From Escherichia coli O157 typing phage 14, in sequence record KP869112: a stretch of DNA of 64,000 bases, one strand, 5' to 3'. A program made the translations under genes and the position numbers. The notes beneath the pieces were generated by a model that was not told where the DNA came from, did not search any database, and saw only the letters and a program-made list of their open reading frames with translations. Positions 5,998-53,805 of the stretch are shown here, in pieces. Position 1 is the stretch's first letter; each line of letters opens with the position of its first letter.

Positions 5998-6036
5998 TAA
6001 TTTATCTTACCATGGACGGTAGAAGCAGGAGGTAGC

Positions 6037-6270
6037 ATGAAAGTTAAATTTCTTACAGATTTAGGGTACCCTTCCTTGGTTGACTGCATTGGTAAAATTG
6101 TGGAAGCAAAACGGCTATCTGCAAACGATAATGTTGTCATGGTTAAGGGAAAAGATTTATTAGCTGCAGGTGCAGAGTCTGGCAGGATCTCTCCTGACTA
6201 TACATATTACTTATCTTTAAGTAATCTACCAGAACGAGGCGGCAAAGGCCTTGAAGTTGTGGAGGAGTGA
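6037..6270 (+). CDS. small acidic protein, MKVK-family paralog
   Basis: MKVKFL N-terminus, KGKDLLAAGA core, acidic EVVEE C-terminus shared with other family members. Confidence 0.5.
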   Translation: MKVKFLTDLGYPSLVDCIGKIVEAKRLSANDNVVMVKGKDLLAAGAESGRISPDYTYYLSLSNLPERGGKGLEVVEE

Positions 6271-6812
6271 CAGGTATGCTTCTGATTAACTGGGAAGACC
6301 TCTATGGGGACAAAGACCCTGTTGCGTTTGTTGATCGTAGATGGAGATACACTGAAGAACAACTGGCTGCAAAAAATTTAACTGCGAAACGCAGAAAGAT
6401 CATCCAGTGCAAGTACAAATACGCACAATTTGCTGCAAAAGTGTCTCCACAAATCGAGAGTTTTGTACTTAAATTGTATGACGAATACCTCAAGTTCAAA
6501 TTGGATTTTGTACAGGTGTACCGTGCACAGGTACGCCCAGATACCAACATATGTAGATGGAAGGTTGTTTGTGACGGTAAAGATTTGCCGCTCAGCTTGA
6601 CAATTGAGTGGCGTTATGGGTATCATGAGTGTGGTCTGTATGATATTTGGGATGTCATTGTAGATCCTGCTAAGTACCTGAACACAGAGGAGCTGGAATA
6701 TATCAATAAGGTTATTCTCGATATGTTTTTCAGATACACCCGTGAAAACTCTGAGAAAGAACGGGATGATTTTCTTGACACCATCAGCAACCATCTGCAG
6801 TATACAATTTAA
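6267..6812 (+). CDS. hypothetical protein (181 aa)
   Basis: ORF, 4-nt overlap with upstream gene. Confidence 0.5.
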   Translation: MTGMLLINWEDLYGDKDPVAFVDRRWRYTEEQLAAKNLTAKRRKIIQCKYKYAQFAAKVSPQIESFVLKLYDEYLKFKLDFVQVYRAQVRPDTNICRWKVVCDGKDLPLSLTIEWRYGYHECGLYDIWDVIVDPAKYLNTEELEYINKVILDMFFRYTRENSEKERDDFLDTISNHLQYTI

Positions 6813-6830
6813 CCTACAAAGGGAGGGCTA

Positions 6831-7067
6831 ATGAGTATAAATGTTGTGCTAATAGGCTACCTGGTAATAGCCGTTATAACAGCGGTATTCTTGACAGGTA
6901 TATGCATCGTGTCTAGACGAAAGGTGAAGTTTGATGATTTTATCACCATCATCACTGCTGCACCTTTTTGGCCTATTGTTATCTTCATCGTAATAATGTG
7001 CCTAGTTGATTACTACAAGAATATTCGTAAGGAGAAAAAGGAGAGTAGGGATGGAGACCGCACCTAA
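6831..7067 (+). CDS. small membrane protein (2 predicted TM helices)
   Basis: Hydrophobic stretches VVLIGYLVIAVITAVFL and FWPIVIFIVIMCL. Confidence 0.45.
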   Translation: MSINVVLIGYLVIAVITAVFLTGICIVSRRKVKFDDFITIITAAPFWPIVIFIVIMCLVDYYKNIRKEKKESRDGDRT

Positions 7068-7180
7068 AGCTGTTTATACTGTTCTTAAAGAGATTGCGTT
7101 CTACGCAGATCTTAGCCAGGCACCTTTATGGGAAAAGAGCATGTATTTAAAATGGTGCGTTAATTTAGGGAGACCTTCCA

Positions 7181-7669
7181 GTGTTTCAAGCCATGTTTAT
7201 TGAGATGCTATCTGGGGTATTGTTACTGGTAGCCATCTTAGGTGGTGCAGTTCTGATGTATAACTATCTTGAAAAAGGAGAAATTTTAACAAAATCTGGA
7301 AAGATAACTTTGATACCTCTTGATAGTAAAGGTAAAGACCCGTCACGACTTGTTATAGATGATTACGTTACAGGTGTGACGTTCGAGGTCTCTGTGGAGA
7401 GGTTAATACGCAGAGCTGGCGGCCCTTATGACCGAAGAGAGTATGTTTTCGATTCCGTTACAGAGATGGGGGAGCATCCGTCTTTAATGTTCAGGATGGT
7501 AATCAGGGATATGAGGTCATCTATAGATAGGATCGTAAAGGACATTAAGGAACCTTTTAGGGTAAAAGTTAAGAAGTTTTTTGATTCTAAGATTAACATA
7601 CTTGCTGTTGTGCTAGGCGTAATTCAACTTCTGTTAATTTTGCACTATTTTGAACTGTTGTTTAAGTAG
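7181..7669 (+). CDS. membrane protein (162 aa)
   Basis: N- and C-terminal hydrophobic helices. Confidence 0.45.
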   Translation: MFQAMFIEMLSGVLLLVAILGGAVLMYNYLEKGEILTKSGKITLIPLDSKGKDPSRLVIDDYVTGVTFEVSVERLIRRAGGPYDRREYVFDSVTEMGEHPSLMFRMVIRDMRSSIDRIVKDIKEPFRVKVKKFFDSKINILAVVLGVIQLLLILHYFELLFK

Positions 7670-7729
7670 TGTGCAACAAGGCACAAAGGATGTGCCATAA
7701 TTAAACAAATTAAGAAAGAGGTAGAGAGA

Positions 7730-8077
7730 ATGTCAAAGATTAAATCGATATTAATGTGGGTAGCTGTTGTGGCTTTTGTAGGATACTGGACTTGGGAAAC
7801 TGAATTAAAAGATATCGGATATACCAGTCTTGAGAGCAAGGCATGCATTGGCATAACCGATGCATTCAGGCAAAATGCTATGGATCACGAATGTGTCGAT
7901 GCAGATATAGATGAGAAACTATCTAAGGACAAGGATTTTTACCATGGTCATGCCTTGCTTGATAGTGGTGACACTGTAGAATTCTGGTCGTGGTTCCGTG
8001 AAGATGGAACAATAAAGACAGCAGTAAAGATTTCCAACAAAGAGTTAATGCTGTTGCAGCAGAAGGAGGCTCAATGA
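7730..8077 (+). CDS. hypothetical protein with N-terminal TM/signal anchor
   Basis: AAGAAAGAGG RBS; hydrophobic N-terminus. Confidence 0.5.
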   Translation: MSKIKSILMWVAVVAFVGYWTWETELKDIGYTSLESKACIGITDAFRQNAMDHECVDADIDEKLSKDKDFYHGHALLDSGDTVEFWSWFREDGTIKTAVKISNKELMLLQQKEAQ

Positions 8078-8361
8078 TCTGGATATCTTATACTGATGGC
8101 ACCATGCTGTATACTGCAGGTACCAGATATGAAGTTCAGGAGAACGATAAAAAATTTATCGTAAGAACATTTGACAAGGACGACAACCTTTTGCTAGAAT
8201 TGACTTACAAGGTTGGAGAGGTATCCAATATCCAATTGGATTGTGGTCATAAAGATAATCCACTCAAAAAACCTGGAATAGGCAAGGCTTCAGAAGAACG
8301 TTTGTCTCGTATTGCAGAAAGCGTTTCTCCCCAAAAATCCAAGAAGAGGATTAGAAAATGA
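8074..8361 (+). CDS. hypothetical protein (95 aa)
   Basis: ORF, 4-nt overlap junctions. Confidence 0.5.
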   Translation: MIWISYTDGTMLYTAGTRYEVQENDKKFIVRTFDKDDNLLLELTYKVGEVSNIQLDCGHKDNPLKKPGIGKASEERLSRIAESVSPQKSKKRIRK

Positions 8362-8558
8362 GTGACAAAATTCTTAAATTTAATACCTACTATGAGAATG
8401 ATTTGAACGATCTGTATTATATAGTGCGTAGCGAAAACCCAAATGTAGTTCTGTTTTGCCGAGAACCTTTCAAAAAAGAGGAGATTGAATCTACCATGAA
8501 TGTGGATCAGATTTCACACCTGCTGCTCCTTGGATCATTAAAAGAGGCAGTATTCTAA
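8358..8558 (+). CDS. hypothetical protein (66 aa)
   Basis: ORF, overlapping junction. Confidence 0.45.
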   Translation: MSDKILKFNTYYENDLNDLYYIVRSENPNVVLFCREPFKKEEIESTMNVDQISHLLLLGSLKEAVF

Positions 8559-8577
8559 ACCAGGGTGGAGGGTTTTT

Positions 8578-8763
8578 ATGAAGCATTATTGTCTGTCTGG
8601 TAGATTGGGTGCAGATTGTGATTGGGTTTTCTTAAAACTTGTCAGCATTCGAGAGTCCATCTCAGAAGAAGAGCAAGAAAGTGAGCTGATGTCATGGATC
8701 AACCATTACGGTAACACTTTTCGGCATGTTAAGGTAGAAGAGTTGCCAAGCGAGGCTGATTGA
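8578..8763 (+). CDS. hypothetical protein (61 aa)
   Basis: ORF with GGAGGG RBS. Confidence 0.4.
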   Translation: MKHYCLSGRLGADCDWVFLKLVSIRESISEEEQESELMSWINHYGNTFRHVKVEELPSEAD

Positions 8764-8858
8764 CTATGATTGCATCAATATTAACGTTTATGGGTGGCGT
8801 GGCATTCGGATTCATTGTTTGCCTGTTTATAGTGATTATGTCTATGCGAGGCTGAATT

Positions 8859-9155
8859 ATGAAACTTTTTGAGTGGTTTAAAAAGTTTAAATATAAAGCT
8901 GTAGCCATCGTGCCGTGGTCCATTCAGTGGGTTGATGAAGGTGGTCTACCAATACCTGGTGACAAAGATACTGGGTACTGGATTATGATGGAGAACGGGT
9001 TTGGAAAGCGAAAGTATACGTGCACAAACTCTACTCGATCTGCGCTTAATAGAGTGCCTGGTTACAAACTTATGGTTGTGTGGAAAATGTCAGGCGTGCC
9101 TCCAGCTAATGCTCAATTTCTTACTGACAATCCGACCACGGTAGAGGGAGATTGA
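8859..9155 (+). CDS. hypothetical protein (98 aa)
   Basis: ORF in co-directional array. Confidence 0.5.
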   Translation: MKLFEWFKKFKYKAVAIVPWSIQWVDEGGLPIPGDKDTGYWIMMENGFGKRKYTCTNSTRSALNRVPGYKLMVVWKMSGVPPANAQFLTDNPTTVEGD

Positions 9156-9439
9156 TAATGAAAAAGATTAACAGTGGTGAAGTTGAGTTTAAACTTGTCG
9201 GGAAAGGCACTTACTGGGAAGTTCGTCAAAAGGTATATTTGTTCGGTCTTATTCCCTATTGGTCTAAATTCTACTGGGGAGCTAACGAGTGGGGAAGATA
9301 CGCCACCAAATCAATGGCACTTATTGGTATAGCAGAGTACATTGCAGCCAGAGATAGGGTTGGAGACACTTATTACTATACTGCGGACGATATTCGTAAC
9401 AGTGTTTACGTCCCACAACCACCTGATGGAGACCGTTGA
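9152..9439 (+). CDS. hypothetical protein (95 aa)
   Basis: ORF, overlapping junctions. Confidence 0.5.
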   Translation: MIMKKINSGEVEFKLVGKGTYWEVRQKVYLFGLIPYWSKFYWGANEWGRYATKSMALIGIAEYIAARDRVGDTYYYTADDIRNSVYVPQPPDGDR

Positions 9440-9663
9440 TGAAAGTTAAAGTTTTAGATTCAAGCTTCTATATTGGTCAGGAGCCTTTAGTAGGAAAAGT
9501 GTTTACTGCTGTCCCTAACGAAGATTACCCTGACCTTTTAAAAATAAAAGGAGCAGATCTTATTGCCGCTGGTGCATCTCAGGAATGCTTTGACAGTCAG
9601 TGGACCTACAACTTTGCCCTAGGTGAGGATGTAGAGGTAGTGGAGGACGATCATGAAGGTTAA
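9436..9663 (+). CDS. small acidic protein, MKVK-family paralog
   Basis: MMKVKVLD...KGADLIAAGA...EVVEDD. Confidence 0.5.
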   Translation: MMKVKVLDSSFYIGQEPLVGKVFTAVPNEDYPDLLKIKGADLIAAGASQECFDSQWTYNFALGEDVEVVEDDHEG

Positions 9664-9907
9664 AATTCTTGATTCTAACGTCTACTTGGGACAATCCTTC
9701 CTGAATGGAAAGGTCGTTCCTGCGGTATACTTTGAAGGGTTGCCGTGGGATGATCCTGTGCGGCAACATCACAGTTATGTAGGCCACAACGTGGTGTTTA
9801 TCTTGGGATCAGACCTGATCACCGCTGGTGCACCTGAATATTATTTCGGGGAAGAGTCCTACTATGCCTTTGGGGTAGGGTCAGATGCAGATATTGTAGA
9901 GCTGTGA
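9653..9907 (+). CDS. small acidic protein, MKVK-family paralog
   Basis: MKVKILD...GSDLITAGA...DIVEL. Confidence 0.5.
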   Translation: MKVKILDSNVYLGQSFLNGKVVPAVYFEGLPWDDPVRQHHSYVGHNVVFILGSDLITAGAPEYYFGEESYYAFGVGSDADIVEL

Positions 9908-9919
9908 TGGGTAACCGTT

Positions 9920-10318
9920 GTGAAAAATAAACTGTTTAAAGTTACAATGAAAATTCGCGGGGCTTGGAGCGTAAAGCAAGGGCGTATTCCAGAATTTGAG
10001 AAAGACTTCTACGTAGTCTCCACCTCGGAGGAGGCTGCATGCTGGCAGGCTGGCTATGCCTATGCAAGAACCTGGTACGAAGGATACCAGACTGGGGGCT
10101 ATGACGGAGAAATTATCAGCAAGGGTGTAGAAGAAATTAATGTGTTGACAAGTGAAAAAGTTTTTGTTATAGTGCATCCAGATTCCAGAGTGAAGCATTA
10201 CTGGAATGCCAGAACAAAAACTTGGACACCGTTTGCAGATTCTGCTACGCCACTTTTAAACCAGAAAGCTCTTGACTCTGCCCCAAGTTATGGGGTTGTT
10301 GAAGAAAAGCTAAACTGA
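9920..10318 (+). CDS. hypothetical protein, paralog of 12125..12520
   Basis: Shared ...HYWNARTKTWTP... / ...YYWDVLNNEWTP... C-terminal region. Confidence 0.5.
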   Translation: MKNKLFKVTMKIRGAWSVKQGRIPEFEKDFYVVSTSEEAACWQAGYAYARTWYEGYQTGGYDGEIISKGVEEINVLTSEKVFVIVHPDSRVKHYWNARTKTWTPFADSATPLLNQKALDSAPSYGVVEEKLN

Positions 10319-10335
10319 AACAGTGAGGTGTCACC

Positions 10336-10626
10336 ATGATGGATTTAATTCTAAATATTGATAACGCAGGAGAGTTTAAAGACGAGGGTGTAACAAGCAT
10401 GGACAAACCCTGCTCTGCTAAGGTTGACTCAAAATGGACCTACAAGTTTGACGGAGAGATCTTCGCAAATGATGAGAAGGTTGTAGATGCTGCAGCCATT
10501 TTAAACGCTCTAGGGTACGACCCTGTGAATTCTTTGATCAAGGATCCTGTTGAGTTTGCAGAGTATGTTCGAAAAATGGCAGATCTTGCTGTGGATATTT
10601 TAAAAACTATCGACAACAAGCTGTAA
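10336..10626 (+). CDS. hypothetical protein (96 aa)
   Basis: ORF with GAGGTG RBS. Confidence 0.5.
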   Translation: MMDLILNIDNAGEFKDEGVTSMDKPCSAKVDSKWTYKFDGEIFANDEKVVDAAAILNALGYDPVNSLIKDPVEFAEYVRKMADLAVDILKTIDNKL

Positions 10627-10708
10627 AAACTGTTGACACAACGCTTCAGATTTAGTATCATTGTTTTCAAAGATGGTTTGGTTCCCTCTTCTTTAAAAGG
10701 AACACGTT

Positions 10709-11026
10709 ATGCAAATTGAAATCACTGGCAACGTAGAAATCACTGAAGGTATGGTGTCTTTCATTTCCCACAAAATGTCTAAGCTGGAGCGTTTGCACCC
10801 CTCTGCCAACTATGCACGTGTGAGTGTAAAAGTTGAAAATGATCACCAGGAAGTTATGGCGCTCATTTTTGACAATTCTGGAAAAGAAGTTATTGCCAAG
10901 GCTAAAGGTAGTGATGCTTACGAGGCAACTGACCGTATGGTAGATGTTGCAGCACGTCAGCTGGCTAAATGCGGTGGAAAGAAAGGTAAGGGGAAAGGCA
11001 AAGTAAAGATTGACTTTGGAGAATGA
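10709..11026 (+). CDS. hypothetical protein with Gly/Lys-rich C-terminus
   Basis: ORF preceded by promoter-like TTGACA-N17-TATCAT at about 10629-10657. Confidence 0.5.
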   Translation: MQIEITGNVEITEGMVSFISHKMSKLERLHPSANYARVSVKVENDHQEVMALIFDNSGKEVIAKAKGSDAYEATDRMVDVAARQLAKCGGKKGKGKGKVKIDFGE

Positions 11027-11163
11027 GGTGCTACAATGGGCGTGATTAAGAAACTAGTCCCAAATGTAGAGATTGCATGCTTTGAAATTATGTTTGCAAT
11101 CGCAGTTGTAGTTAATGTGTTAGGTTACGGCTATTAATATCAAATAATTGAGGAGACCTCTAA

Positions 11164-11433
11164 ATGAAAATTAAATTATTCAAAACTGAGCTGGCAGACA
11201 AAAACTGTGGACTGGTTGAAGGCATGATTGTCGAAGCACAACCAGTTGACTATATGAAGGTGGTTCGTGATGCCCTGGGTGAAGGTTTTGATCTGATGGA
11301 GCCAGCTCTGCGAGAAGATGTTATCGAGATGGCTAAAAAGCACACACCTGAAGGAATGGTGGTGTTTGTTGCACCAGGTAACGGAGAAGAGTTGATTGTA
11401 ACTCCGGATGTGTATGAGATTGTAGAGGAATAA
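11164..11433 (+). CDS. small acidic protein, MKVK-family paralog
   Basis: MKIKLF...EIVEE. Confidence 0.5.
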   Translation: MKIKLFKTELADKNCGLVEGMIVEAQPVDYMKVVRDALGEGFDLMEPALREDVIEMAKKHTPEGMVVFVAPGNGEELIVTPDVYEIVEE

Positions 11434-11524
11434 TCCTGCTTGGATTAGCATACTTCCTCGACAAGGAAGGTTTGTAATTATTTGTGGGAAAGGAATCCCA
11501 ATCTCTTACCATAGGTGATACTAT

Positions 11525-11788
11525 ATGATTGTTTATTTTAAAACTTCAGGTGGATACCCTGATTCTCAAAGCTTGATCGGAAAAACGTGCACAGCATACT
11601 CACCTCTTGATGAGGAGGTAGGCGATATTCTACGAAATATGTATCGGATTGATCCCCAAGAAGCCTTTGATCAAAACCTTGTATTTGTCAAGGGCTCAGA
11701 CATGAAGTCTTTGGGAGCATTCCCTGAAGCAGATGATGATGCCGTTTATTCGTTCATGACCCCTTTTGAAGCTATGGTTGTCGGGTGA
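11525..11788 (+). CDS. small acidic protein, MKVK-family-like
   Basis: VFVKGSDMKSLGAF core. Confidence 0.45.
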   Translation: MIVYFKTSGGYPDSQSLIGKTCTAYSPLDEEVGDILRNMYRIDPQEAFDQNLVFVKGSDMKSLGAFPEADDDAVYSFMTPFEAMVVG

Positions 11789-11792
11789 TAAT

Positions 11793-12125
11793 ATGAAAGT
11801 ACGCTTTATTGGTGAAACAATTCCTGTGCATCTCCGGTCGCCTGAGGATTCTGCAGATCTTGCATCTCAGAAAGCGAGAGGCTATGATAAGAAAGTAACC
11901 TCAACCGGTGTAGTGCTTGAGGCTACTAGTCTACCTGACCCTGCTGCATTCTTTAATCATTATGGGTACTATTTCAGCAATCTTATGAATATCGGTGAGC
12001 TTGTGTTTATTAGTGGTGGAGAGATTGTTAGCAAGCTTGGCGGCGATCCGGATGTCTTTCATGAAACCTGTCCTTTTGCATTTGTGGTAGGTTCAGATGT
12101 GGAAGTTATTGAGGAGGTGCGGTAA
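11793..12125 (+). CDS. small acidic protein, MKVK-family paralog
   Basis: Internal ATG (MKVRFIG) chosen; GSDVEVIEEV C-terminus; ORF track 11766..12125. Confidence 0.45.
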   Translation: MKVRFIGETIPVHLRSPEDSADLASQKARGYDKKVTSTGVVLEATSLPDPAAFFNHYGYYFSNLMNIGELVFISGGEIVSKLGGDPDVFHETCPFAFVVGSDVEVIEEVR

Positions 12126-12520
12126 TGGTAAGCCTATACCGTGTTGAGTATAGCTCAGATACTGTATACAACGTAAGAAGCAAAGATCGCAGCAACAGAG
12201 TGCAAGAAATGTATGTTCTTGCCGACAGTCCGTTATCTGCAGCGTTCAAGGCAGGGGCTCTTGCATCTCGTTGGAAATTTGAAGGCGGATCTTTCTATGA
12301 AGAAACCCTTGAAGATTCTGTTGTTATTTCTTCTGTAGAGGTTTCAGATGACTACGAAGGGAAAAAGTTCGTAATGCGGCACCCACACAGCAACATTGCG
12401 TACTACTGGGATGTTCTGAACAACGAGTGGACCCCAGATCTTCAGAAGGCCACTGTGCTAACACCGTTTTTGGCAGATAAGTTCCCACCAGAAGGTAATT
12501 TATCCGCACTGTTTCAGTAA
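12125..12520 (+). CDS. hypothetical protein, paralog of 9920..10318
   Basis: See 9920..10318. Confidence 0.5.
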   Translation: MVSLYRVEYSSDTVYNVRSKDRSNRVQEMYVLADSPLSAAFKAGALASRWKFEGGSFYEETLEDSVVISSVEVSDDYEGKKFVMRHPHSNIAYYWDVLNNEWTPDLQKATVLTPFLADKFPPEGNLSALFQ

Positions 12521-12596
12521 TTTTCTTGCACACAGGTGTTGACAACACCAACCCTGTGTGAAATAATACCTTCATCTTAACAAGACGGGAGACTGA

Positions 12597-12857
12597 TTGA
12601 TGAAGATTAAACTGAAAAACCTTGAAATGGCAGAGATTCAGGATGGTGTTGATTTCCGCTCTAAAGATGGTGACATCTTAGAGGTAAATCTTCCAACCTA
12701 CGAGCTGATTAAAGGTTTTGGCAACGTTCAGGAAGAGGATATTCCAGAAATTCTTATGATGTTGATTCTTGACGGAACTGTGTTTGTAGGTGAAGGTGAG
12801 AACGCTATTGCAATCCCAGGCCATTTTTATGAAGTAGTTGACGAAGAGGTGCTGTAA
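12597..12857 (+). CDS. small acidic protein, MKVK-family paralog
   Basis: MMKIKLKN...HFYEVVDEEVL; promoter-like TTGACA at about 12539. Confidence 0.5.
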   Translation: MMKIKLKNLEMAEIQDGVDFRSKDGDILEVNLPTYELIKGFGNVQEEDIPEILMMLILDGTVFVGEGENAIAIPGHFYEVVDEEVL

Positions 12858-13208
12858 ATGAAAGTAGAAATTACTGGTTTTGATGTTAGTGTGGTTCCGG
12901 AAGATATTTTAGCTAACTTACCGGAAGGTTTTGGTAACGGTGTTGTGGTGGATGCTGTTCCTCCTACCAAAGACATTCTGCTGCAGTATGGTGTAGCAGA
13001 GGAAGATGTCGATAAAGTTCTTACAATGATGGCAATCGATCGTGTTGTCGTTGTTAAAGGTCTCGATAATTTTGAGAGTGATCCTCTGATTATTCGCGGA
13101 GATGACTACAAAATCATCGATAATGAAGGCCAAGAGTTCTATGAGCCTTGTGCAGAAGATATTCTTAACTTATTACTGGAAGCAGGCACCGAAGAGGAGG
13201 ACGAATAA
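12858..13208 (+). CDS. small acidic protein (116 aa), MKV-type N-terminus
   Basis: MKVEITG...acidic C-terminus. Confidence 0.5.
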   Translation: MKVEITGFDVSVVPEDILANLPEGFGNGVVVDAVPPTKDILLQYGVAEEDVDKVLTMMAIDRVVVVKGLDNFESDPLIIRGDDYKIIDNEGQEFYEPCAEDILNLLLEAGTEEEDE

Positions 13209-13537
13209 TGAAGATTGACCAGTTACTGAAGGCTCGTGCAGAAAAAGCGTACACCATTAAGCTGACCAACCTGGTTCCTACTTGTCATCCGGATGTAGGT
13301 TGGCCCGAAGGTCTGGTAGAGGGAACTGTAACAGCTGCATACCTTCCTAACATCAAGTACCTTATGGAGATCTTAGAGATGGATGAGGAAACTGCAGAAC
13401 AGTTCCAGTTAGATATGAAACAGAGTGGGACTCTGGTTATTCACGGGTGGTATAATACTAAAGATGCAGAAGACCCTCTGGTAACTTCTAATCTGGCATA
13501 TGAAATCTTAGGGCCTTTGAACCTGGAGGAAGACTAA
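13208..13537 (+). CDS. small acidic protein (109 aa)
   Basis: ORF, overlapping junctions. Confidence 0.5.
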   Translation: MKIDQLLKARAEKAYTIKLTNLVPTCHPDVGWPEGLVEGTVTAAYLPNIKYLMEILEMDEETAEQFQLDMKQSGTLVIHGWYNTKDAEDPLVTSNLAYEILGPLNLEED

Positions 13538-13824
13538 TGAAAGATCTGGTTAAGATTAAGATTAAAGATACCAATGGAGAACTCAGCCATTTTGGAATTA
13601 ATGATGGTGACGAGCTGATCGCACACCTGCCTACTAAGGAGGTTGTAAGCAAAGCAGTTGCAGGAGAAGAAGCTGCAATGCAGGCTGCAGGTGTGGATGA
13701 AAACTATGTAGCTATGTGCATGTGCCGAGATCAGGTTGTTCTGTATAAAGCGTATCGACCAAACGGAGCCACGGAGTGGCTTGTATTCCGACCCGAAGGA
13801 TATGAAATCTTAGAGGCACTATGA
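13537..13824 (+). CDS. small acidic protein (95 aa)
   Basis: ORF, overlapping junctions. Confidence 0.5.
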   Translation: MKDLVKIKIKDTNGELSHFGINDGDELIAHLPTKEVVSKAVAGEEAAMQAAGVDENYVAMCMCRDQVVLYKAYRPNGATEWLVFRPEGYEILEAL

Positions 13825-13913
13825 TAAATCTTGCCAAGGTTGCAACGGCACTGCTAATTATTTGCTGGTCAGTAACCTTAACACTGTGTCTTGTATTTCA
13901 GTGAGGTGCTTGT

Positions 13914-14177
13914 ATGAACATCCTGATGTGGGTTATAGCAGTGGCGTTTGTTGCATGTTTTTGCTGCTGGGTTGCGGTGAGGATTTCTGTAGCTACCCTT
14001 CGGAAGTTGGGGTTCTCAGAATGGGATATTAATATCCTTTCTTTTCGCAATGAAACAATCTCAGCCGCCCTGCTTTGTAAGAAATTCAAGTGGGAACCTT
14101 GTGAGGTCATGAGCTATCTAAGAACAGGCGATATCCCTGAAAGATTTAAAAAAGTTCTTGACGGCAAGGATAAATGA
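13914..14177 (+). CDS. small membrane protein
   Basis: N-terminal hydrophobic helix ILMWVIAVAFVACFCCWVAV. Confidence 0.45.
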   Translation: MNILMWVIAVAFVACFCCWVAVRISVATLRKLGFSEWDINILSFRNETISAALLCKKFKWEPCEVMSYLRTGDIPERFKKVLDGKDK

Positions 14178-14332
14178 CAGTATAGTGACTAACAAGAGGT
14201 GAGGAGTGACTGATTTTACTGAAGCTTTAATGATGGCCTTGTCTGTTTTAGCGCTATCGGTGTGTTTTGGGGCGTTATTCACATCTCTGGTTAAAGTTTT
14301 ACATACAATATTATTACCCAAGGAGCGCAGTA

Positions 14333-14584
14333 ATGACGAAGATTGACTTGAATGCTGGCGATCATGTTGTTGTCAAATGCATTGGAGATTATCTTGGATT
14401 CACAATCGGCAATACTTACGAGGCGGTAGTGGCGAAGGTTTATCATGATAAAGTCCTCAGTCTTGTATTTGACTGCGATGATGATGGGGATGACCGATAC
14501 GTCTGTGAGGTGCTGGCACGAGACGATAGTGAAGACCAGAAATTTCTGGTTATTGAACTGAACGGTATTTTTGTAGAACGTTAA
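14333..14584 (+). CDS. hypothetical protein
   Basis: Internal ATG with AAGGAG RBS; ORF track 14267..14584. Confidence 0.45.
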   Translation: MTKIDLNAGDHVVVKCIGDYLGFTIGNTYEAVVAKVYHDKVLSLVFDCDDDGDDRYVCEVLARDDSEDQKFLVIELNGIFVER

Positions 14585-14612
14585 TTTAAAACAACATAAG
14601 GAGACTCTTACT

Positions 14613-14918
14613 ATGGCTAAATCTAAAGTTGAACTGTTCACCTCTCTTCCTTCTGACACTGCAGAGCGTGATCGCCTTCGCAAAACAATCGAAGAACTGG
14701 TGGAACTCCAACTTCAGATTAAAGATCTGAAAGATGCCATTAAGGATATCATTCTTGTTGAGAAGCAGGATCATTTGTATTCTCCTAAATTCATCAAATC
14801 TCTGGTGGCTACCGAGTTCGATATTCGATATGAGGCTGAAAAACGTCGAGCTAAAATCGAAGAAGAGGTTGAGCACATGTCTGAGGCAGACATTCTGTTC
14901 AAACGCTCTGTAGAATAA
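14613..14918 (+). CDS. hypothetical coiled-coil protein (101 aa)
   Basis: AAGGAGA RBS; charged heptad-like sequence. Confidence 0.5.
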   Translation: MAKSKVELFTSLPSDTAERDRLRKTIEELVELQLQIKDLKDAIKDIILVEKQDHLYSPKFIKSLVATEFDIRYEAEKRRAKIEEEVEHMSEADILFKRSVE

Positions 14919-14923
14919 TGACA

Positions 14924-14950
14924 AAGAGGGGGGGCTTAGGCCCCTCTTTT
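14924..14950 (+). terminator. rho-independent terminator
   Basis: AAGAGGGG...CCCCTCTT hairpin followed by T tract. Confidence 0.6.
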
Positions 14951-14974
14951 TACTATCTATGAAGGAGATTTGAG

Positions 14975-15307
14975 ATGGGCATGCCGATCACTGTAAAAGA
15001 ATTGAATGAACGTGATGCAGGTGGTCTATGGCCTGCACGAAAAATCCGTTGCATCCGTATGAAAGAGAACCTTGAACATCTTGAGCAACAGAAACGGATT
15101 GAGGTTGGTGATATTTTCGAAGTATTTTATTCTGATCGCCGTAACTGGGAAACCATTCAACCTTCCGGTCTTGTTCTTGCTAAGCTTGACACTGGAGAAG
15201 TGATTGTTCCTGGGTTGGATATTGTCTTCGAAATTATCCAGGAGTGGGATCCGGACAAGATTAGATACGAAGAGTTATTCGGTAAAGGTATTATCAAACC
15301 TGTGTGA
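14975..15307 (+). CDS. hypothetical protein (110 aa)
   Basis: AAGGAGA RBS. Confidence 0.5.
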   Translation: MGMPITVKELNERDAGGLWPARKIRCIRMKENLEHLEQQKRIEVGDIFEVFYSDRRNWETIQPSGLVLAKLDTGEVIVPGLDIVFEIIQEWDPDKIRYEELFGKGIIKPV

Positions 15308-15615
15308 GGTGGATTATGTCTACAAAGGCGGCTAAATACTCCTACATACCATCAACCTCTGCAGAGGTAGACTTTAGTTTCGATGTGTTTCCACTGTTTG
15401 AGGTGGTTCTGGCATACCCAACAATACTATCTACTCCTGAGTCACTTGTGCCTGTTAAGTTGCAGAACGCTATGCATTCTATGCACTACAACAATAAATG
15501 TAGGCACAGATGGTGTCAGGACGAGGAAAAAGATCTGGATAGTTTGAGAGATTTTGACAATCACCTTTTGACACCTTTCAGCTACTCCAACCTTGATAAG
15601 CCCTCATGGGTATAG
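15304..15615 (+). CDS. hypothetical protein (103 aa)
   Basis: 4-nt overlap with upstream gene. Confidence 0.5.
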   Translation: MRWIMSTKAAKYSYIPSTSAEVDFSFDVFPLFEVVLAYPTILSTPESLVPVKLQNAMHSMHYNNKCRHRWCQDEEKDLDSLRDFDNHLLTPFSYSNLDKPSWV

Positions 15616-15639
15616 CAAAATATCAAATTTAAGACACCT

Positions 15640-15668
15640 AGGACGCTCTGTGGCGTCCTTTTCTTTAT
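15640..15668 (+). terminator. rho-independent terminator
   Basis: AGGACGC-TCTGTG-GCGTCCT hairpin followed by TTTCTTT. Confidence 0.7.
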
Positions 15669-15828
15669 CTGGTGCACGATTGCATACCTTTGACAGATAA
15701 TCTCATTACAGAGCGTTTAAGAGCTTCCTACAAACAAATCTCTCTTTCGAGCGTAGCGAGAACGCACGTCCGTTTTGACCCAAATCACCATACGCTCGGA
15801 TTTTAACCAAACCCTCGCGGCGTTTCTA

Positions 15829-15857
15829 TTGACACATTACCGCTCCAGTGATAATAT
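15829..15857 (+). promoter_or_regulatory. sigma70-like promoter (TTGACA-N17-TAATAT)
   Basis: Hexamers read directly; a 29-codon hydrophobic ORF (15890..15979) and ORF 15976..16188 follow. Confidence 0.5.
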
Positions 15858-15975
15858 CCACACATAGTTTGTAGAATATGGGGTACACTATGAGAACATT
15901 GTCCGAAGTTTTGGTGGTGATCCTGATGATCATTACGTCCATAGCGGCTGTTGCCGGAATACTCACGGGTGGAAC

Positions 15976-16188
15976 ATGATAAACACACATGCATCTGAAG
16001 AGACATCCAAAGGAGTGACTATATGTCCCTTGGCTGAGCCAGTGAAAGAGGAAAACTTCGATTCTGAAGATTCTCCATCTTCGCTCCAGGTAGATCCTGA
16101 GGCTGATGACCTAACGTGGGAAGACATCGTAGATATCTGGTTCTCTATTATGCCTGAGCACGAAGAGTTCAGGGGTGGTAGACTATGA
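15976..16188 (+). CDS. small acidic protein (70 aa)
   Basis: ORF overlapping upstream mini-ORF stop (ATGA). Confidence 0.35.
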   Translation: MINTHASEETSKGVTICPLAEPVKEENFDSEDSPSSLQVDPEADDLTWEDIVDIWFSIMPEHEEFRGGRL

Positions 16189-16309
16189 AGCACCGAGCCC
16201 ACACAGGTTCCTCATGCTAAAGCATGGCCTGAAGAGGCAAACGTGCATAATTCCTGTACATTGGGACGTATAAAACCCTGTTCACATTCTCATTTCCAGA
16301 GGAGATTTC

Positions 16310-16525
16310 ATGAAGATAGAAATATTTGGTGGAGCTGACAATACTCGTGGCCTGATTTACCTTGAATTCGATGAATCATACCTGCCAGAGGTGTTAAATA
16401 TGGACTCTGTTGCTGATGCTTTGGGAGTAAGTCCTAAAGATCTCTACTCTGGTGCTGAGATTGATGGTTGGGAGGAGACCATGAACATTGATTTCAGTGA
16501 AGTAGGTGATGAACCACTGGACTGA
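16310..16525 (+). CDS. small acidic protein, MKVK-family-like
   Basis: MKIEIFGG...acidic C-terminus; GAGGAG RBS. Confidence 0.45.
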   Translation: MKIEIFGGADNTRGLIYLEFDESYLPEVLNMDSVADALGVSPKDLYSGAEIDGWEETMNIDFSEVGDEPLD

Positions 16526-18049
16526 CACACAATTAGCTACCCGGCTAAAGTGCTGGGAGCACCTATAACACATCTTTCAACTAAATTTCCTACCACCACA
16601 ATCACTTACCTCCCACACATGACTGTTTGCTTGTTTAGTGAGCAGTCATGCCTTGACATTCTTGCCTATCCTGATAAAATTAAGTTCTTCTCTTTTCTTT
16701 TACCGAGTAATTCGGGTTTTCTGTTCTCTTCGGTTTGAAGGGGTATGGAGATACACCTGAGTGAACAGGGTGAACAACCGAACCATTGGCTATGGCATTA
16801 GCATGGCGAAGCGGACGGGTGACGAAAGAGGGGCCGGAGGACACCAGTCACTGCCATATGATATATAGGTGATAACCTGAAGAGTCTGAATAAGTGTTTA
16901 AGTACCAGTCAGAGGAAAAGGTGAATGGTAGCCGAAGGGGGAGGGGGGTTTCTTGTATCTTTAATTTGTATATTATGTATACACTTGTAAACCAACACCA
17001 TCTGAATTTGCTTACCACACAAAGCGGATAGAGACAAATATTACCTATTAAACTTGAATTATTTATAGAAAATACCACAACACCACTTAAGTCTTTGATT
17101 TTACACATAAATCCTACAGATATTCACCCTCCATATTTAACATACTTGTAACATATCTATACCCAACCTGTCTGATCAACTCACCCAACTACATCCTCCA
17201 TATTTCCCCTGTCTGTACTACCCCTGCCCAGCCGGGAGTCCCGTCATATCTGGCTTTCCAGCAAATATCACACCCACAAATATCATTGCCTGAAGAGGGT
17301 TTCATCCCATAATACATGCCTTACCTGAAGAGCGCTTCATACACCACGTAAATTTTTTAATTGACCTGCAATTTTCCCGTCATGACCCCCTGCCCCGCCA
17401 GAGAGGTTGACTTTTCCCACACAGACCTGAAGAGCCAGCCAGAAATATCTGAACAGGTCCAGTTATACCACGATTTTGACCTGACCGACAGGAGTGCCTC
17501 CCTGTCAGGAGCCGGTAGCGACTGGAGTGCTGCCAGGCGGACGAAATGGGAATACTTCTCATTCTTATAATAATTCTCAAATATCGAGGCAGTGAGGCAA
17601 ATTAATAGGTGAGGCCGTTCACACAGTGGCACAACATTTGCAACCTATCTTGTGGGGTGAATGAGAATACCTATCATTGTGAGAATAGTTATCATTACGG
17701 GCAATTTAACATAATACCCATTATGCGCACCACTGGCGATACATACAGGGGTTGATAACATGAGTTACTGTTTACGCACATAACAATTATATTTCTTACT
17801 ATTTGTGTGGGATATAGTTAGCAGCCGATAGATTAGATATTGACCTGTAGACTTCCAACCGTCTAGACGTCTAAACGCCCACACAACAAGGCTTATACAT
17901 ACATCACTGAATGTAAACAGGACCGCAAAAATGCTACCATACAAGCTTGTAAATTTTTCATGCAGCACTTGACAAAGAGGAGGAAAACTTGTCTGACACA
18001 CTGGGCACAACATAACATACTGCAGCACAATATGACACAATAACGACTG

Positions 18050-18400
18050 TTATTATTTCATGTTTCACTGTTCACGTATAGATTGTTCCCGCATAGACTG
18101 TTTACGCCTGGATAGTTCACGCATAGATGATAAGCCATGCCATTCGTTTGCATGACAATAATTAACTTGTTTACAATAGATGACATAATATAAAAGCAGG
18201 GCAACTATTAGAAGATCATAGTTGCCTTGCTTGTTATGTCATGATTAACTAAATACAAGGCAACTATGATCTGATTAATAGATTGCAGACAAACTATCAC
18301 GGGGGTGATTGTTACTGCTTTTATATTATGTCGCGACTCCGTCGCGCCATGCCATTCGTTTGCATAGTTGCCTTATTGTTACAGATAAAATAATTGTATT
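18050..18400. repeat. cluster of direct and inverted short repeats in large non-coding region
   Basis: Four GTT(C/T)ACGCATAGA-like direct repeats at about 18060-18130; GGCAACTAT/ATAGTTGCC x4; CATGCCATTCGTTTGCAT x2; GACATAATATAAAAGCAG inverted pair. Confidence 0.6.
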
Positions 18401-18985
18401 GTTAATTATTTCTTATCTTTCTATTAGTCATCTAATGATTTCAGTTAGTATAGTAACGTACAGTAAACATTAGACGACTAAAGATTTCTCTGCTTATAAT
18501 AACCTAACGTGACAATTCCGGACTGTTTACGAAAAATGTTGACACCTGAGCTGATTTATGTTATGCAGTTTACACGAATAATTATTTTATGCAGGTATTG
18601 ACTATTCTGTTATTCTATGGTTGGAATAAATACTTAGCAGGCTATAGAATGGTGAGCGTACGTAAATTCTAAGATCTGGCGGCTATAGTTATGCCCGATT
18701 TTTCACGTAGAAAACGCTTTTATGAGTGTGTAAGTGTATGACTTATAAAGATTTTTAGTTGTTGACAAGATACTGAAGATGTGCATCAGGTTAAATTTTG
18801 TGCAATAGCGGCATTACGTGCAATTTTGGAAGGAAAAACGTGTAAAAAATGGCGCTGCTACCACACAATGAAAGATTATGCAATAGCTATTTTACATGTA
18901 TGTTTGTACAGTGGTGGTAATTGATGGCTTGTCGATTATTCCACTTGCCAGGCTGGGCCGTTTGTGGTAGGGGAAATACAGACAA

Positions 18986-19012
18986 AAAGAAAGGGGCCTT
19001 TTAAAGCCCCTG
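18986..19012 (-). terminator. rho-independent terminator (minus strand)
   Basis: GGGGC...GCCCC hairpin followed on minus strand by TTTCTTTTTG. Confidence 0.6.
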
Positions 19013-36313: not shown

Positions 36314-36677
36314 TCATCAGATCTGCCATAGCGTCACCAACGAAGAGAACAACCACATCGTTGACAGCGTCAGTATCATCTTTGTTGACGTTGCTGAATT
36401 TAGGACACACAGCAATGATCATATAGACACCGTTACCCACCTGAACTGTCCGTGTGGTGCACATCATGGCGGTATTTGTGCCTTCTTTGAAGGCGAAGCC
36501 TTGAAGACGCTCCTCTAAAGTGTTACCGGTAGATTTCAGAAGCGCCAGCTCGTCCAAGGCATAGATGATGTCTCCGGAAGTTAGTGTTGCCTTGCCATCA
36601 GACACCATAATCACTCCATCAGCACCGTCAAGCTTAGAGGCTTCAAAGATATCAATATCCCAAATATTTTTCATCAC
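36285..36677 (-). CDS. hypothetical protein (130 aa)
   Basis: ORF in minus array. Confidence 0.5.
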   Translation of the reverse strand: MMKNIWDIDIFEASKLDGADGVIMVSDGKATLTSGDIIYALDELALLKSTGNTLEERLQGFAFKEGTNTAMMCTTRTVQVGNGVYMIIAVCPKFSNVNKDDTDAVNDVVVLFVGDAMADLMNAGEAANED

Positions 36678-36994
36678 GCTTCCTCGTCGTCTAAGGAGTT
36701 GAAGATTTCACCGAAGTATTCTAAGACTTCTAGCTCCCGTGTGGTGCAGAAAACACAGTCACCGTTGTCATCCTCGATAACGGCCTCTTTACCCAGAATA
36801 TCTACTTCAAGTTCATCGTTCAACAGGACGGCCCCTGTGTAAACTTTGTCAGCTGTGCAGTCCCGAAAAGCAAAGTCCTTCTCCAGATAGTCTGGCTTAA
36901 CCTTGGCTTTAATTCGTTGGTATTGTTTGGTCATTGCTGTGGTCCCCTTTCGTTTTGATAGGGCCATTATATTAGGCCCTATCACTGTTGTCAA
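36674..36994 (-). CDS. small Cys-containing acidic protein, paralog of 36998..37252
   Basis: Shared AF(K/R)DCT...(D/G)D(C/S)V(F/W)CT motifs. Confidence 0.5.
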   Translation of the reverse strand: MTTVIGPNIMALSKRKGTTAMTKQYQRIKAKVKPDYLEKDFAFRDCTADKVYTGAVLLNDELEVDILGKEAVIEDDNGDCVFCTTRELEVLEYFGEIFNSLDDEEA

Positions 36995-36997
36995 GTA

Positions 36998-37252
36998 TTA
37001 ATGTTCAGGTTTTACAAAAACGACTTCATTAACAGTGCACCAGACAGAGTCTCCTTCATCATCTTTAAAGGTAAGGCACTGTGCCGAGTTTTCCAGCTCA
37101 TCGATCTCTTCTTGTGATAAAGGGGCCCCTTCTTCCAGAAGGGCTTTTACCAGAGGGTTCTCACAAAACTCTGCTTCATAAATTGCACCGACTGTGCAAT
37201 CTTTAAAAGCTCGGTCATTTGCAACGCATTCTGGCTTCAAAGTAATTTTCAT
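36998..37252 (-). CDS. small Cys-containing acidic protein, paralog of 36674..36994
   Basis: See 36674..36994. Confidence 0.5.
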   Translation of the reverse strand: MKITLKPECVANDRAFKDCTVGAIYEAEFCENPLVKALLEEGAPLSQEEIDELENSAQCLTFKDDEGDSVWCTVNEVVFVKPEH

Positions 37253-37328
37253 CTTGGCAGTCTCCTTAGTTATTTAAAAATCAACGCTCTGTTTGTGTGA
37301 AGCATCTTATATCTAATCTTACTTCTTG

Positions 37329-37727
37329 TCAATGGCTATTTTCAATCAGCCACACAGGGTCGAGGTAAATTTGTTGGCGTGTTGCCCAATGACAAACTTC
37401 ATTGTACATCTGAATCTCTTTGTCCGTCAGTTCACGAATAGGCTCATCTATACCCTCATTTTTGTGGTAATCCCAGTCGGCATCGATTTCCCACAACCAT
37501 GACTTGTTGTCACCACGCTTACGCACACAGAAGTCACCAGGACGGCCTGCCAGTGCATTTAAGAACTCGTTCTCCGCTCGCTCCTGGAGAATACTAAGGA
37601 GCAAAACGTTGGAGCATGACCGTAAAATATGCTTCAGCTCACAATCATCAATCTCAACTTCAATACGTTGTTTGACTGTGTGGGTACCTTTTACTAACAT
37701 CCTACCTCCTCTAAACGAACTCTGCAA
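37329..37727 (-). CDS. hypothetical protein (132 aa)
   Basis: ORF in minus array. Confidence 0.5.
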   Translation of the reverse strand: MQSSFRGGRMLVKGTHTVKQRIEVEIDDCELKHILRSCSNVLLLSILQERAENEFLNALAGRPGDFCVRKRGDNKSWLWEIDADWDYHKNEGIDEPIRELTDKEIQMYNEVCHWATRQQIYLDPVWLIENSH

Positions 37728-37905
37728 GAGTTGTGTTGTTCACTGCACCGCAGTAAATGGAATATCCCAGCCCATTATAGTGTAAAAACCACGGCGTGCC
37801 GAAATTATCTTTCACGTAGACATCGCCGTTGTTTGTAAAGGGCCAATATTCTTCACCAAGGGTAAAATACCTATTCATACCCTCAGCCAGATACTTTACT
37901 TTCAT
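37711..37905 (-). CDS. hypothetical protein (64 aa)
   Basis: ORF in minus array. Confidence 0.4.
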   Translation of the reverse strand: MKVKYLAEGMNRYFTLGEEYWPFTNNGDVYVKDNFGTPWFLHYNGLGYSIYCGAVNNTTLAEFV

Positions 37906-38129
37906 AGGCCCTCTTCAACAGCTACAAACTTGGCAAGCAGGCTGGTTCCGTAGATATGATACTCACCGTTTGCCAGATGGGAGATAAACCAGGCAATCCC
38001 TTCCTCGTCTTTAATCATCTTGTTTGCACGATTTTTATCGTAATAAACCTCGTAGGTCTCTCCTTCTTTAAAGAAGGACAGGTCTGTCATCTTTTCTTCT
38101 ACAAAAGTAGCTTTAACCAAAGTTGTCAT
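37902..38129 (-). CDS. hypothetical protein (75 aa)
   Basis: 4-nt overlap junctions. Confidence 0.45.
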   Translation of the reverse strand: MTTLVKATFVEEKMTDLSFFKEGETYEVYYDKNRANKMIKDEEGIAWFISHLANGEYHIYGTSLLAKFVAVEEGL

Positions 38130-38410
38130 TGATCGGTCTCCTTCTTGTTAAGTCTGAATACTGCAATAATAGCATTCCCAAGGTGCAGTGTCAAGTCATT
38201 TCCAAGATACCACAGCATCCCACGGTCATCTTTAATGAAAGGGTAACAATCTGGTGCCTTCCAGACATTGTACACTTTCCCAACCTGAAAGAAATCAGGA
38301 CCTGTTGGGATTTTGGTGCCAGGCCACACTTGAGATACCTGAACACACTCCACCTGCATAATAACAGGAATGGTCATGGATGTAAATGTTTTTGTTGGCT
38401 CTACTACCAT
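38126..38410 (-). CDS. hypothetical protein
   Basis: Internal ATG with AGAGGAG leader chosen to avoid overlap with polymerase 3' end; ORF track 38126..38500. Confidence 0.4.
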   Translation of the reverse strand: MVVEPTKTFTSMTIPVIMQVECVQVSQVWPGTKIPTGPDFFQVGKVYNVWKAPDCYPFIKDDRGMLWYLGNDLTLHLGNAIIAVFRLNKKETDQ

Positions 38411-38459
38411 AAAAGTCTCCTCTTTGCTCAACAGCACCTCCCTGTGCTGATAGTTTACA

Positions 38460-52620: not shown

Positions 52621-53805
52621 TTAAGCTTTAGCCAAAATGGCGCTAAACTCTTCACCAAACTCTTTTACAATCTTCATCAGGTTTGGGTATGCTTTGATCA
52701 GCTGAGCAACGATCTTGTCACGACCTTTACCGATAAGCAAGGCATTTCCTAAGGCATTAGGTTTCATCATCGCCATAAAGACTGAAAATACAAAATCTCG
52801 GTTCTCGTCCTTGAAGTTTTCCCAAAGGAAATCGAGAAAGTTTGCCACACAGCTAACAAGATCTTCGTCGGAGATACTTGCATTTTCCATCATATTACGA
52901 ATAGCGATGCAACCTTCAGATCCAAGAATCCACAAGATGTCTGGCTGTTTAGGACCTACGTATTCTTTGCAACCTCCTGCCATAATCCGACCGATTTCCG
53001 GTAAGTTGCGTTTCTTGGTGTGGTAAGTCCAGATCTCTACCGCTGCAGTGTGACCAATAGCACCTTGCAGAAGAACACGGGCCATAGCGTCAGAAATAAT
53101 ACCGCTGTCAAAATCGTGCAAGATATCAGATGCAGCAACCCAAGATCGCGGTGTGGCAAAAGATGGACAATTAATCTCAGCCATGGCCTCATAATTATCG
53201 ATAGCTGATGGAACTCTTTTCAGATATCCAATTACAGAGGAGTGCACCCCATTAAGGAATGCGTAGTCCTCAATAAACACCTCTGCATTGCTTGTAACCT
53301 CTACAATGATAAAACGGTTAGCCAGAGGGGCTTCGAGCGCCGAAAGAACCGCACCATCTGTAGAACGGTTACCAGCAGCCACAAAAACAGAACCCTTAGG
53401 GAATGCATAGGTACCGCACTTGTGGTCAAGCATAATTTGCATTGCAACCTTTTGCAGGTAGTTATCTGCATGAGTGAGCTCATCCAGAAAGATAATTCCG
53501 CTCCAGTCAGGATCCGCAGGCCAAAATTCTGGAATTGCAAACACTGTACGTGTAGTTCCATCCGCTTCTACAGGGATAGGTAGCCCAGATAAGTCGGCAG
53601 GATCTTTATCTGACAGTCGCACGTCAACAAGGTTGTCATCTCGCTCACCGAACATATTATCAGCGATCTGCTTCATCACCTGGCTTTTACCCACACCCAT
53701 TGGTCCCAAAATTAGGACAGATCGGCTATGACGTTGGGCAAACTGAATAATAGCTGGCAACTCACGGACAGTGATTTGACCACTTTCGAATACGTTTCTT
53801 GACAT
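52621..53805 (-). CDS. MoxR/AAA_5-type AAA+ ATPase
   Basis: Walker A LILGPMGVGKSQ, Walker B IIFLDELTHA. Confidence 0.65.
   Translation of the reverse strand: MSRNVFESGQITVRELPAIIQFAQRHSRSVLILGPMGVGKSQVMKQIADNMFGERDDNLVDVRLSDKDPADLSGLPIPVEADGTTRTVFAIPEFWPADPDWSGIIFLDELTHADNYLQKVAMQIMLDHKCGTYAFPKGSVFVAAGNRSTDGAVLSALEAPLANRFIIVEVTSNAEVFIEDYAFLNGVHSSVIGYLKRVPSAIDNYEAMAEINCPSFATPRSWVAASDILHDFDSGIISDAMARVLLQGAIGHTAAVEIWTYHTKKRNLPEIGRIMAGGCKEYVGPKQPDILWILGSEGCIAIRNMMENASISDEDLVSCVANFLDFLWENFKDENRDFVFSVFMAMMKPNALGNALLIGKGRDKIVAQLIKAYPNLMKIVKEFGEEFSAILAKA

Follow-up and report, generated by a model that had tools for sequence, protein, structure and literature searches.

The array and its two protein families

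The DNA analysed here, a stretch of 64,000 nucleotides (nt) referred to as the window, comes from Escherichia coli O157 typing phage 14 (sequence record KP869112). It contains an array of small genes encoding ten acidic proteins of 74-116 amino acids (aa), labelled A to J, together with two copies of an associated gene, X1 and X2 (Table 1). Over positions 6000-14000 the identity is 98.6% with Escherichia phage FFH2 and about 97% with phage rV5, and 121 phage records match, nearly all of them Vequintavirus. The array genes lie within a long block on the + strand which opens with nrdD/nrdG, phoH, clpP and a DNA methyltransferase gene and which contains annotated sigma-70-type promoters. A first-pass annotation made from the sequence alone had proposed an expanded family of small acidic proteins here. 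The open reading frames (ORFs) it listed are all present in place, as 'hypothetical protein' throughout the rV5 annotation, and the expansion is real, with ten members in two families.

For the assignment of members, each listed ORF was translated and compared with every six-frame ORF of 45 aa or more in the window, 412 in all. Five proteins (A, B, C, E and F) constitute group 1, in which C matches B at E = 1.5e-11, and five others (D, G, H, I and J) constitute group 2, in which G and H cluster by direct comparison while I, J and D are recruited only after profile building. With leave-one-out hidden Markov models (HMMs) the omitted member came out on top of the 412 ORFs every time, at E = 1e-13 to 2e-6 in group 1 and 6e-6 to 4e-4 in group 2, and the runner-up ORF was never better than E = 0.18 in either group. 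These are two separate, statistically supported sequence families of five members each, rather than the one family of nine or more first envisaged, as neither HMMER nor hhalign joins them. The original membership list had overlooked I and J, and included three ORFs (at 16310, 54502 and 59455) which are matched by neither group profile; that at 59455, placed on the minus strand, is on the + strand.

The sequence features by which the single family had been recognised differ in their diagnostic value. The proposed central (K/L)G-DL(I/L)(A/T)AGA motif holds for group 1, where G-x-[DE]-L-[IL]-x-x-G-A follows the third strand of the predicted fold and precedes an aromatic Y-x-F strand in all five members as well as in a 35-sequence alignment of the group; D, G, H, I and J have no G-x-[DE]-L-x-x-x-G-A motif. 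The MK(V/I)K N-terminus does occur in the members but is not diagnostic, because five of the 11 window ORFs that start with MK[VI][KREQ][IVLF] belong to neither family. The acidic C-terminal strand proved specific: [ED][VI][VIL][ED] within the last 12 residues is found in seven of the ten members, across both groups, against one of the 402 other ORFs. In six members the terminal Glu-Glu codons (GAGGAG or GAGGAA) double as the Shine-Dalgarno sequence for the gene that follows. Every one of the ten members is acidic; isoelectric points (pI) are 4.05-5.39 and net charges -1 to -22.

Table 1. Array genes and promoters in the window, with counterparts in phages rV5 and Bas54.
Feature	Family	Position	Strand	Length (aa)	rV5	Bas54	Remarks
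A	group 1	6037..6270	+	77	gp122	bas54_0166	PHROG 5009 at E = 6e-36; leave-one-out rank 1, E = 2e-6
B	group 1	9439..9663	+	74	gp135	bas54_0159	modelled representative of group 1
C	group 1	9653..9907	+	84	gp136	bas54_0158	10-residue insert between strands 2 and 3; leave-one-out E = 1e-13
X1	PHROG 7379 (not barrel family)	9920..10318	+	132		bas54_0157	third gene of cassette 1 (B-C-X1)
Sigma-70-like promoter (rV5 P144)		10633..10661	+				11/12 consensus; annotated in rV5; upstream of hibernation-factor gene, D and E-F-X2
D	group 2	11164..11433	+	89	gp141	bas54_0153	leave-one-out rank 1, E = 4e-4
E	group 1	11525..11788	+	87	gp142	bas54_0152	20-residue insert between strands 2 and 3; leave-one-out E = 8e-7
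F	group 1	11793..12125	+	110	gp143	bas54_0151	two inserts; leave-one-out E = 2e-6
X2	PHROG 7379	12125..12520	+	131		bas54_0150	third gene of cassette 2 (E-F-X2)
Sigma-70-like promoter, extended -10 (rV5 P150)		12539..12567	+				11/12 consensus + TG; annotated in rV5; upstream of G-H-I-J
G	group 2	12600..12857	+	85	gp145	bas54_0149	modelled representative of group 2
H	group 2	12858..13208	+	116	gp146	bas54_0148	acidic C-terminal extension, net charge -22; leave-one-out E = 7e-6
I	group 2	13208..13537	+	109	gp147	bas54_0147	leave-one-out E = 3.5e-4
J	group 2	13537..13824	+	95		bas54_0146	leave-one-out E = 1e-5

The two promoters in Table 1 were located by a sigma-70 consensus scan of the window, and their likeness to sigma-70 promoters, the sole basis for any statement on timing, suggests that the array may be expressed early. 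The rV5 genome paper treats genes 82-163 as one transcription unit, and does not mention paralogues among these genes. Within the second cassette the genes are tightly packed, E and F being separated by 4 nt and the stop codon of F overlapping the start of X2 as TAATG. A ribosome hibernation factor gene (Pfam Ribosomal_S30AE, E = 9e-13) lies mid-array between the two cassettes, at 10709-11026; its Bas54 counterpart is non-essential on K-12. J is a single intact ORF in both the window and Bas54, and rV5 (NC_011041, 14800-15070) has in its place two overlapping ORFs, gp148 and gp149, which give two partial matches, and this points to a frameshift or sequencing error in the rV5 record.

Distribution and database matches

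Group 1 had been regarded as specific to its lineage; it is instead widespread among phages and prophages. A profile of the five proteins retrieved 43 relatives at E <= 1e-3 among 1.84 billion representative proteins, nearly all of them 63-87 aa long and aligned from residue 1, with the wider consensus MKVKLLxxGGYxGxxxxxGKVVxA...IxGxELxxxGA...YxF..GxExE; two large repetitive proteins among the 43 are probably spurious. In the PHROGs collection, A, B and C match PHROG 5009 at E = 4e-32 to 2e-38 and E does so weakly (1e-4), while F joins the group only through the leave-one-out HMM (2e-6). The wider relatives match PHROGs 5009 and 13367, and the family as a whole spans PHROGs 5009, 13367, 7345 and 8603, clusters which share with group 1 the length, the N-terminus, the central motif and the C-terminus and which are annotated as 'unknown function'. 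Group 1 is thus an already catalogued, widespread and uncharacterised phage family, often present in several copies. Group 2 was found solely in Vequintavirus-like genomes, and F and all the group 2 proteins have PHROGs of their own that are restricted to Vequintavirus (13661, 11868, 12359, 12155, 12457 and 12794).

Outside Vequintavirus, group 1 genes occur in several settings. In prophages of a Morganella genome and of a second bacterial assembly, lambdoid or P22-like, a group 1 gene sits in the early-left operon, with recT/erf/ssb genes on one side and genes for a NinX-like protein, an MT-A70 methylase and an integrase on the other. A 44-kb viral contig carries five copies, which flank its DNA polymerase gene, another contig carries three and a 66-kb contig two, and a Proteus podophage has one copy within a run of small genes. 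With two to five copies in other phages, multi-copy arrays thus recur in unrelated phages. Some relatives are tandem fusions, of three copies (P0032) or two (P0037), and others bear extra C-terminal domains. As clues to function these fused and tandem proteins yielded nothing in Pfam and merely further families of unknown function in PHROGs.

The earlier statement that the proteins are no recognisable enzyme held throughout: none of the ten matches Pfam at E <= 1, nor NCBIfam, PADLOC or PDB sequences, and the 35 aligned group 1 members have no meaningful match in Pfam or NCBIfam. PDB sequence searches with group 1, group 2 and X1 returned just a chance ankyrin-like 'LLEAGADPN' match and noise, and Foldseek against predicted viral structures found uncharacterised phage proteins only. 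The conserved positions are occupied by glycine, aromatic or aliphatic residues; there is no sign of catalysis in the sequences, and the conservation looks structural. A word-indexed homology search with B alone found only close Vequintavirus orthologues, tblastn of B, H and one distant relative against isolated phages added next to nothing, and keyword searches of the literature turned up no paper on either family.

Predicted fold and relation between the families

Both groups are predicted to fold as SH3-like barrels. The AlphaFold model of B (predicted local distance difference test score, pLDDT, 92) has strands at residues 2-5, 21-23 and 33-37, a helix at 38-43 and further strands at 56-61 and 65-69. 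That of G (pLDDT 83) shows the same strand order, with a hairpin and two helices (34-38 and 45-58) added before strand 3. The two models match the same SH3-like chains in structure comparison. Between strands 2 and 3 group 1 has either a short loop or, in C, E and F, an insert of 10-40 residues, placed where group 2 has its helices. The fold likeness extends to the SH3-like small barrels in general (SH3 domains, the KOW domains of Spt5/NusG, and PsaE), yet sequence identity to these is only 4-25%, and the topology differs, strand 3 being followed by a helix and a long loop in group 1 and preceded by a two-helix insert in group 2. The Pfam models for SH3, KOW and PsaE matched none of the ten members at E <= 1 and gave no relevant match among the 35 relatives.

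Since the predicted fold also resembles OapB, an RNA-binding barrel like the KOW domains, the proteins could be RNA-binding barrels of the KOW or Sm-like kind or, given their charge, mimics of DNA or RNA which inhibit host DNA-binding proteins such as restriction enzymes and nucleoid proteins. We consider this improbable. Direct binding of nucleic acid is hard to reconcile with a pI of about 4, and the members carry neither a KOW nor an S1 signature nor any other from Pfam. Acidity, which would fit mimicry, is so widespread among small phage accessory proteins that it does not discriminate, and mimicry is in any case a special case of the more general binding role proposed below.

By their models the two groups are alike, and from their sequences homology between them is not demonstrable. 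Comparison of the 35-sequence group 1 alignment with group 2 by hhalign gave a probability of 8%. The best variant, in which group 2 with its divergent orthologues was set against the insert-bearing group 1 proteins only, reached 56% (P = 1e-4) over just 27 N-terminal columns, and P rose to 0.055 on removal of the initial Met-Lys. The score of a global alignment between the groups was no better than that of column shuffles, and iterated HMMER searches did not cross from one group to the other. We nevertheless lean towards a common ancestry of groups 1 and 2, on the grounds of their adjacency, fold, strand order and shared termini and not of alignment statistics.

These comparisons also bear on the proposal that no true family exists and that the resemblance is an artefact of translation context, with MK-AAA starts favoured at one end of the genes and Glu-Glu codons serving as the next Shine-Dalgarno sequence at the other. 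The non-members with the same N-terminal pattern, the GAGGAG-type codons at the 3' ends of six genes and the loss of between-group signal without the leading MK are all what such an artefact would produce. Within the groups it is refuted: similarity is not confined to the N-terminal MKxK, as the first-pass annotation had allowed it might be, but extends over the full protein and holds up in the leave-one-out tests, full-length relatives in unrelated phages are retrieved with the group 1 profile, the structure models are confident, and D retains its EIVEE ending with no gene starting in the next 91 nt. As an account of the array as a whole, translation context is therefore highly improbable; it can explain, and only in part, the likeness of one group to the other and the three non-members.

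Duplication and divergence of the array

Apart from the two families, the only further strong paralogue pair in the array is X1-X2 (E = 5e-10), both about 131 aa long and both members of PHROG 7379, a cluster of unknown function. The order of two group 1 genes followed by a PHROG 7379 gene is present twice, as B-C-X1 and as E-F-X2, and this repetition suggests that a three-gene cassette has been duplicated. Paralogue expansion is known for viral host-range factors, as in the 'accordion' of poxvirus K3L and the segmental amplification of dmd-tifA in T4. The array resembles these cases in the tandem and segmental duplication of small accessory genes followed by divergence, and differs in that its copies are ancient, 30-47% identical or less, and have been passed on stably throughout the genus.

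A divergent rV5-like contig (L015), in which PhoH, ClpP and the methyltransferase are 69-85% identical to those of the window, keeps nine of the ten members intact, with identities of 28-74% (A, B, D, E, F, G, H, I and J); in it C carries a frameshift and X1 is missing. H diverges fastest, being 29% identical to its orthologue. The ratio of nonsynonymous to synonymous substitution (dN/dS) between the window and this contig is 0.13-0.48 where computable, values which are rough as synonymous sites are saturated. At the level of sequence, these comparisons show that the members have been kept as coding sequences by selection while diverging quickly.

Host-specific depletion in Bas54

Experimental information on these genes is available from transposon sequencing (Tn-seq) of phages by HIDEN-SEQ, which included Bas54 (Escherichia phage MaxBurger, MZ501093; bioRxiv 10.1101/2025.11.20.689424). 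The window genes A-J, X1 and X2 map to Bas54 at 95-100% protein identity. On K-12 no member is essential, D, E and F being classed as 'intermediate' and the other seven as 'non-essential' (bioRxiv 10.1101/2025.11.20.689424). In the uropathogenic clinical isolate CFE311, compared with K-12, zero reads were obtained in E (log2 fold change, log2FC, -7.16), F (-6.17) and X2 (-6.77), with an adjusted p = 0 (bioRxiv 10.1101/2025.11.20.689424). X1 is depleted to a lesser degree (log2FC -2.14, adjusted p = 0), the change in D (-2.78) is not significant, and A, B, C, G, H, I and J are unchanged (bioRxiv 10.1101/2025.11.20.689424). These values are those of the resampling comparison in supplement file 9, where the sheet 'resampling_K-12_vs_CFE303' and the next one hold an identical table. 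We read the host as CFE311 because the command line names the '311' library and because bas54_0063 and bas54_0140, whose depletion the text assigns to CFE311, are depleted in it. The preprint does not discuss genes 0150-0152, deletions having been built only for 0063 and 0140 (bioRxiv 10.1101/2025.11.20.689424).

The same publication concerns two further genes with counterparts in the window. An ORF at 15304-15615 shares 97% identity with bas54_0140 and is located some 1.5 kb downstream from group 2, within the + strand accessory block that also holds the array. By deletion, bas54_0140 was validated as required against DS-28, a defence system predicted in E. coli CFE311 (bioRxiv 10.1101/2025.11.20.689424). 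On the opposite strand, a gene for a MoxR-type AAA ATPase of 394 aa (52621-53805) adjoins the ORF at 54502 and, judged by gene order and annotation only, appears to be bas54_0063, for which a need against DS-28 is likewise reported.

A proposed role in host-specific adaptation

The interpretation that we favour, with a probability of about 0.55, is that the proteins are non-enzymatic binding modules with an SH3-like barrel fold which serve host-specific adaptation, most plausibly counter-defence. The ten single-domain barrels would have arisen by tandem and segmental duplication in a sigma-70-driven accessory block of an rV5-like virulent myovirus. The conserved N-terminal MK[VI]K[LIV] strand and the C-terminal E[VI][VI][ED]E strand would close the barrel, and the segment between strands 2 and 3, the most variable among the paralogues, would set the binding specificity. 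Such proteins would most likely work in stoichiometric amounts, through binding to macromolecules of the host or the phage. They would be accessory in K-12 and become necessary in certain hosts, at least E-F-X2 (11525-12520) in CFE311, where their likeliest role would be to block or evade a strain-specific defence.

In several respects the array behaves like the small counter-defence and takeover proteins T4 Dmd, T4 NrdC.1, Bas37_0203 and bas54_0140 treated in the HIDEN-SEQ work, which are small, without known domains, dispensable on K-12, encoded in accessory blocks and depleted in a host-specific manner. It differs from these examples in that most barrel paralogues have no phenotype and that E, F and X2 are linked to a candidate role by Tn-seq alone. 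The pool of host-takeover or anti-defence genes envisaged by the first-pass annotation is thereby borne out in part: an accessory role in host interaction fits genes which are not essential on K-12 and in two of which, E and F, insertions are lost in CFE311. Three points weigh against the favoured interpretation. Eight of the ten members have no phenotype in CFE311, the sole clinical host with readable data; the depletion of E and F could stem from lost expression of the downstream X2; and the model of G, from which the fold of group 2 is taken, was built on an alignment of five sequences only.

The second of these points leads to a different account, in which only X2 (and X1), as PHROG 7379 proteins, are host-specific. 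Because E, F and X2 are translationally coupled, the 4-nt gap and the TAATG overlap making this coupling tight, the whole effect may operate through X2 alone, the barrels being depleted through polarity or broken coupling, and X1 is depleted as well while B and C upstream of it are not. The role of the barrels themselves would then lie in replication, recombination or nucleotide metabolism, for instance as adaptors of the replisome or of recombination. The location of family members around the DNA polymerase gene of a viral contig (L009) and next to recT/erf/ssb in prophages, and of the window array downstream of nrd, phoH and clpP genes, would be in line with this. However, the undepleted B and C also argue against a strong polar effect of insertions on the gene that follows, in agreement with the transposon, which lacks a terminator, and with the authors' argument against widespread polarity (bioRxiv 10.1101/2025.11.20.689424). 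A core role in replication is not apparent either, because D, E and F are just 'intermediate' on K-12 and the rest fully dispensable. We therefore regard this account as rather unlikely, and retain host-specific binding modules as the preferred interpretation.

A bolder form of the latter would see the MKVKLL barrel as a widespread modular counter-defence scaffold, diversified into repertoire-like arrays of binders for various proteins of host immunity by swapping or growth of the insert between strands 2 and 3, with E-F-X2 acting as a three-part unit against a CFE311 defence and group 2 as a diverged branch. Taken as a whole this is unlikely to hold.

Other features of the window

The ORF at 59455, removed from the families above, was also considered as the centre of a third family (58924, 59190, 59455, 60151 and 14267), which was rejected as leave-one-out failed for most of these. 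Its one strong partner is merely an inverted duplicate at the end of the window: positions 59480-59768 and 63712-64000 form a perfect inverted repeat of 289 nt, the second arm of which reaches the last base, so that ORF 59455-59688 recurs, inverted and nearly identical, at 63792-63989. Collinearity of the window with most rV5-like genomes stops at about position 62076. The repeat may be an artefact of assembly, or else the contig end may have been rearranged.

Between convergent gene blocks, at the peak of cumulative GC skew, about 2.4 kb (approximately 16600-19000) are without convincing ORFs. Copies of CAGGGCAACTAT / ATAGTTGCCTTG cluster in this region in both direct and inverted orientation, a 20-nt sequence is repeated exactly around 18134-18381, and neither a tRNA nor an Rfam match was obtained there. 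The rV5 genome paper labels the equivalent region 'non-coding', and in Bas54 the equivalent intergenic region of about 2 kb tolerates no transposon insertions (bioRxiv 10.1101/2025.11.20.689424). It is a candidate replication origin. A run of adjacent small ORFs on the minus strand (36674-38500) may be another cluster of paralogues, judged from weak mutual similarities: 36674-36994 and 36998-37252 match at E = 5e-7, and the members of a trio within 37711-38500 at E = 1e-3 to 2e-3.

Significance

Most genes of large virulent phages are without known function, and ten of them are here reduced to two fold-related families, one of which is widely distributed among Enterobacterales and Vibrio phages and prophages. 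New in the present analysis is the link of two group 1 members to a strong host-specific fitness effect, already contained in public Tn-seq data and undiscussed by its authors. The rV5-like phages are of therapeutic relevance and infect pathogenic E. coli over a broad host range, and the link could reveal a new function in counter-defence or host range, together with its target in the host. If a barrel with a variable insert is indeed the basis of the array, the family would also serve naturally as a scaffold in binder engineering and as a marker of phage accessory regions.

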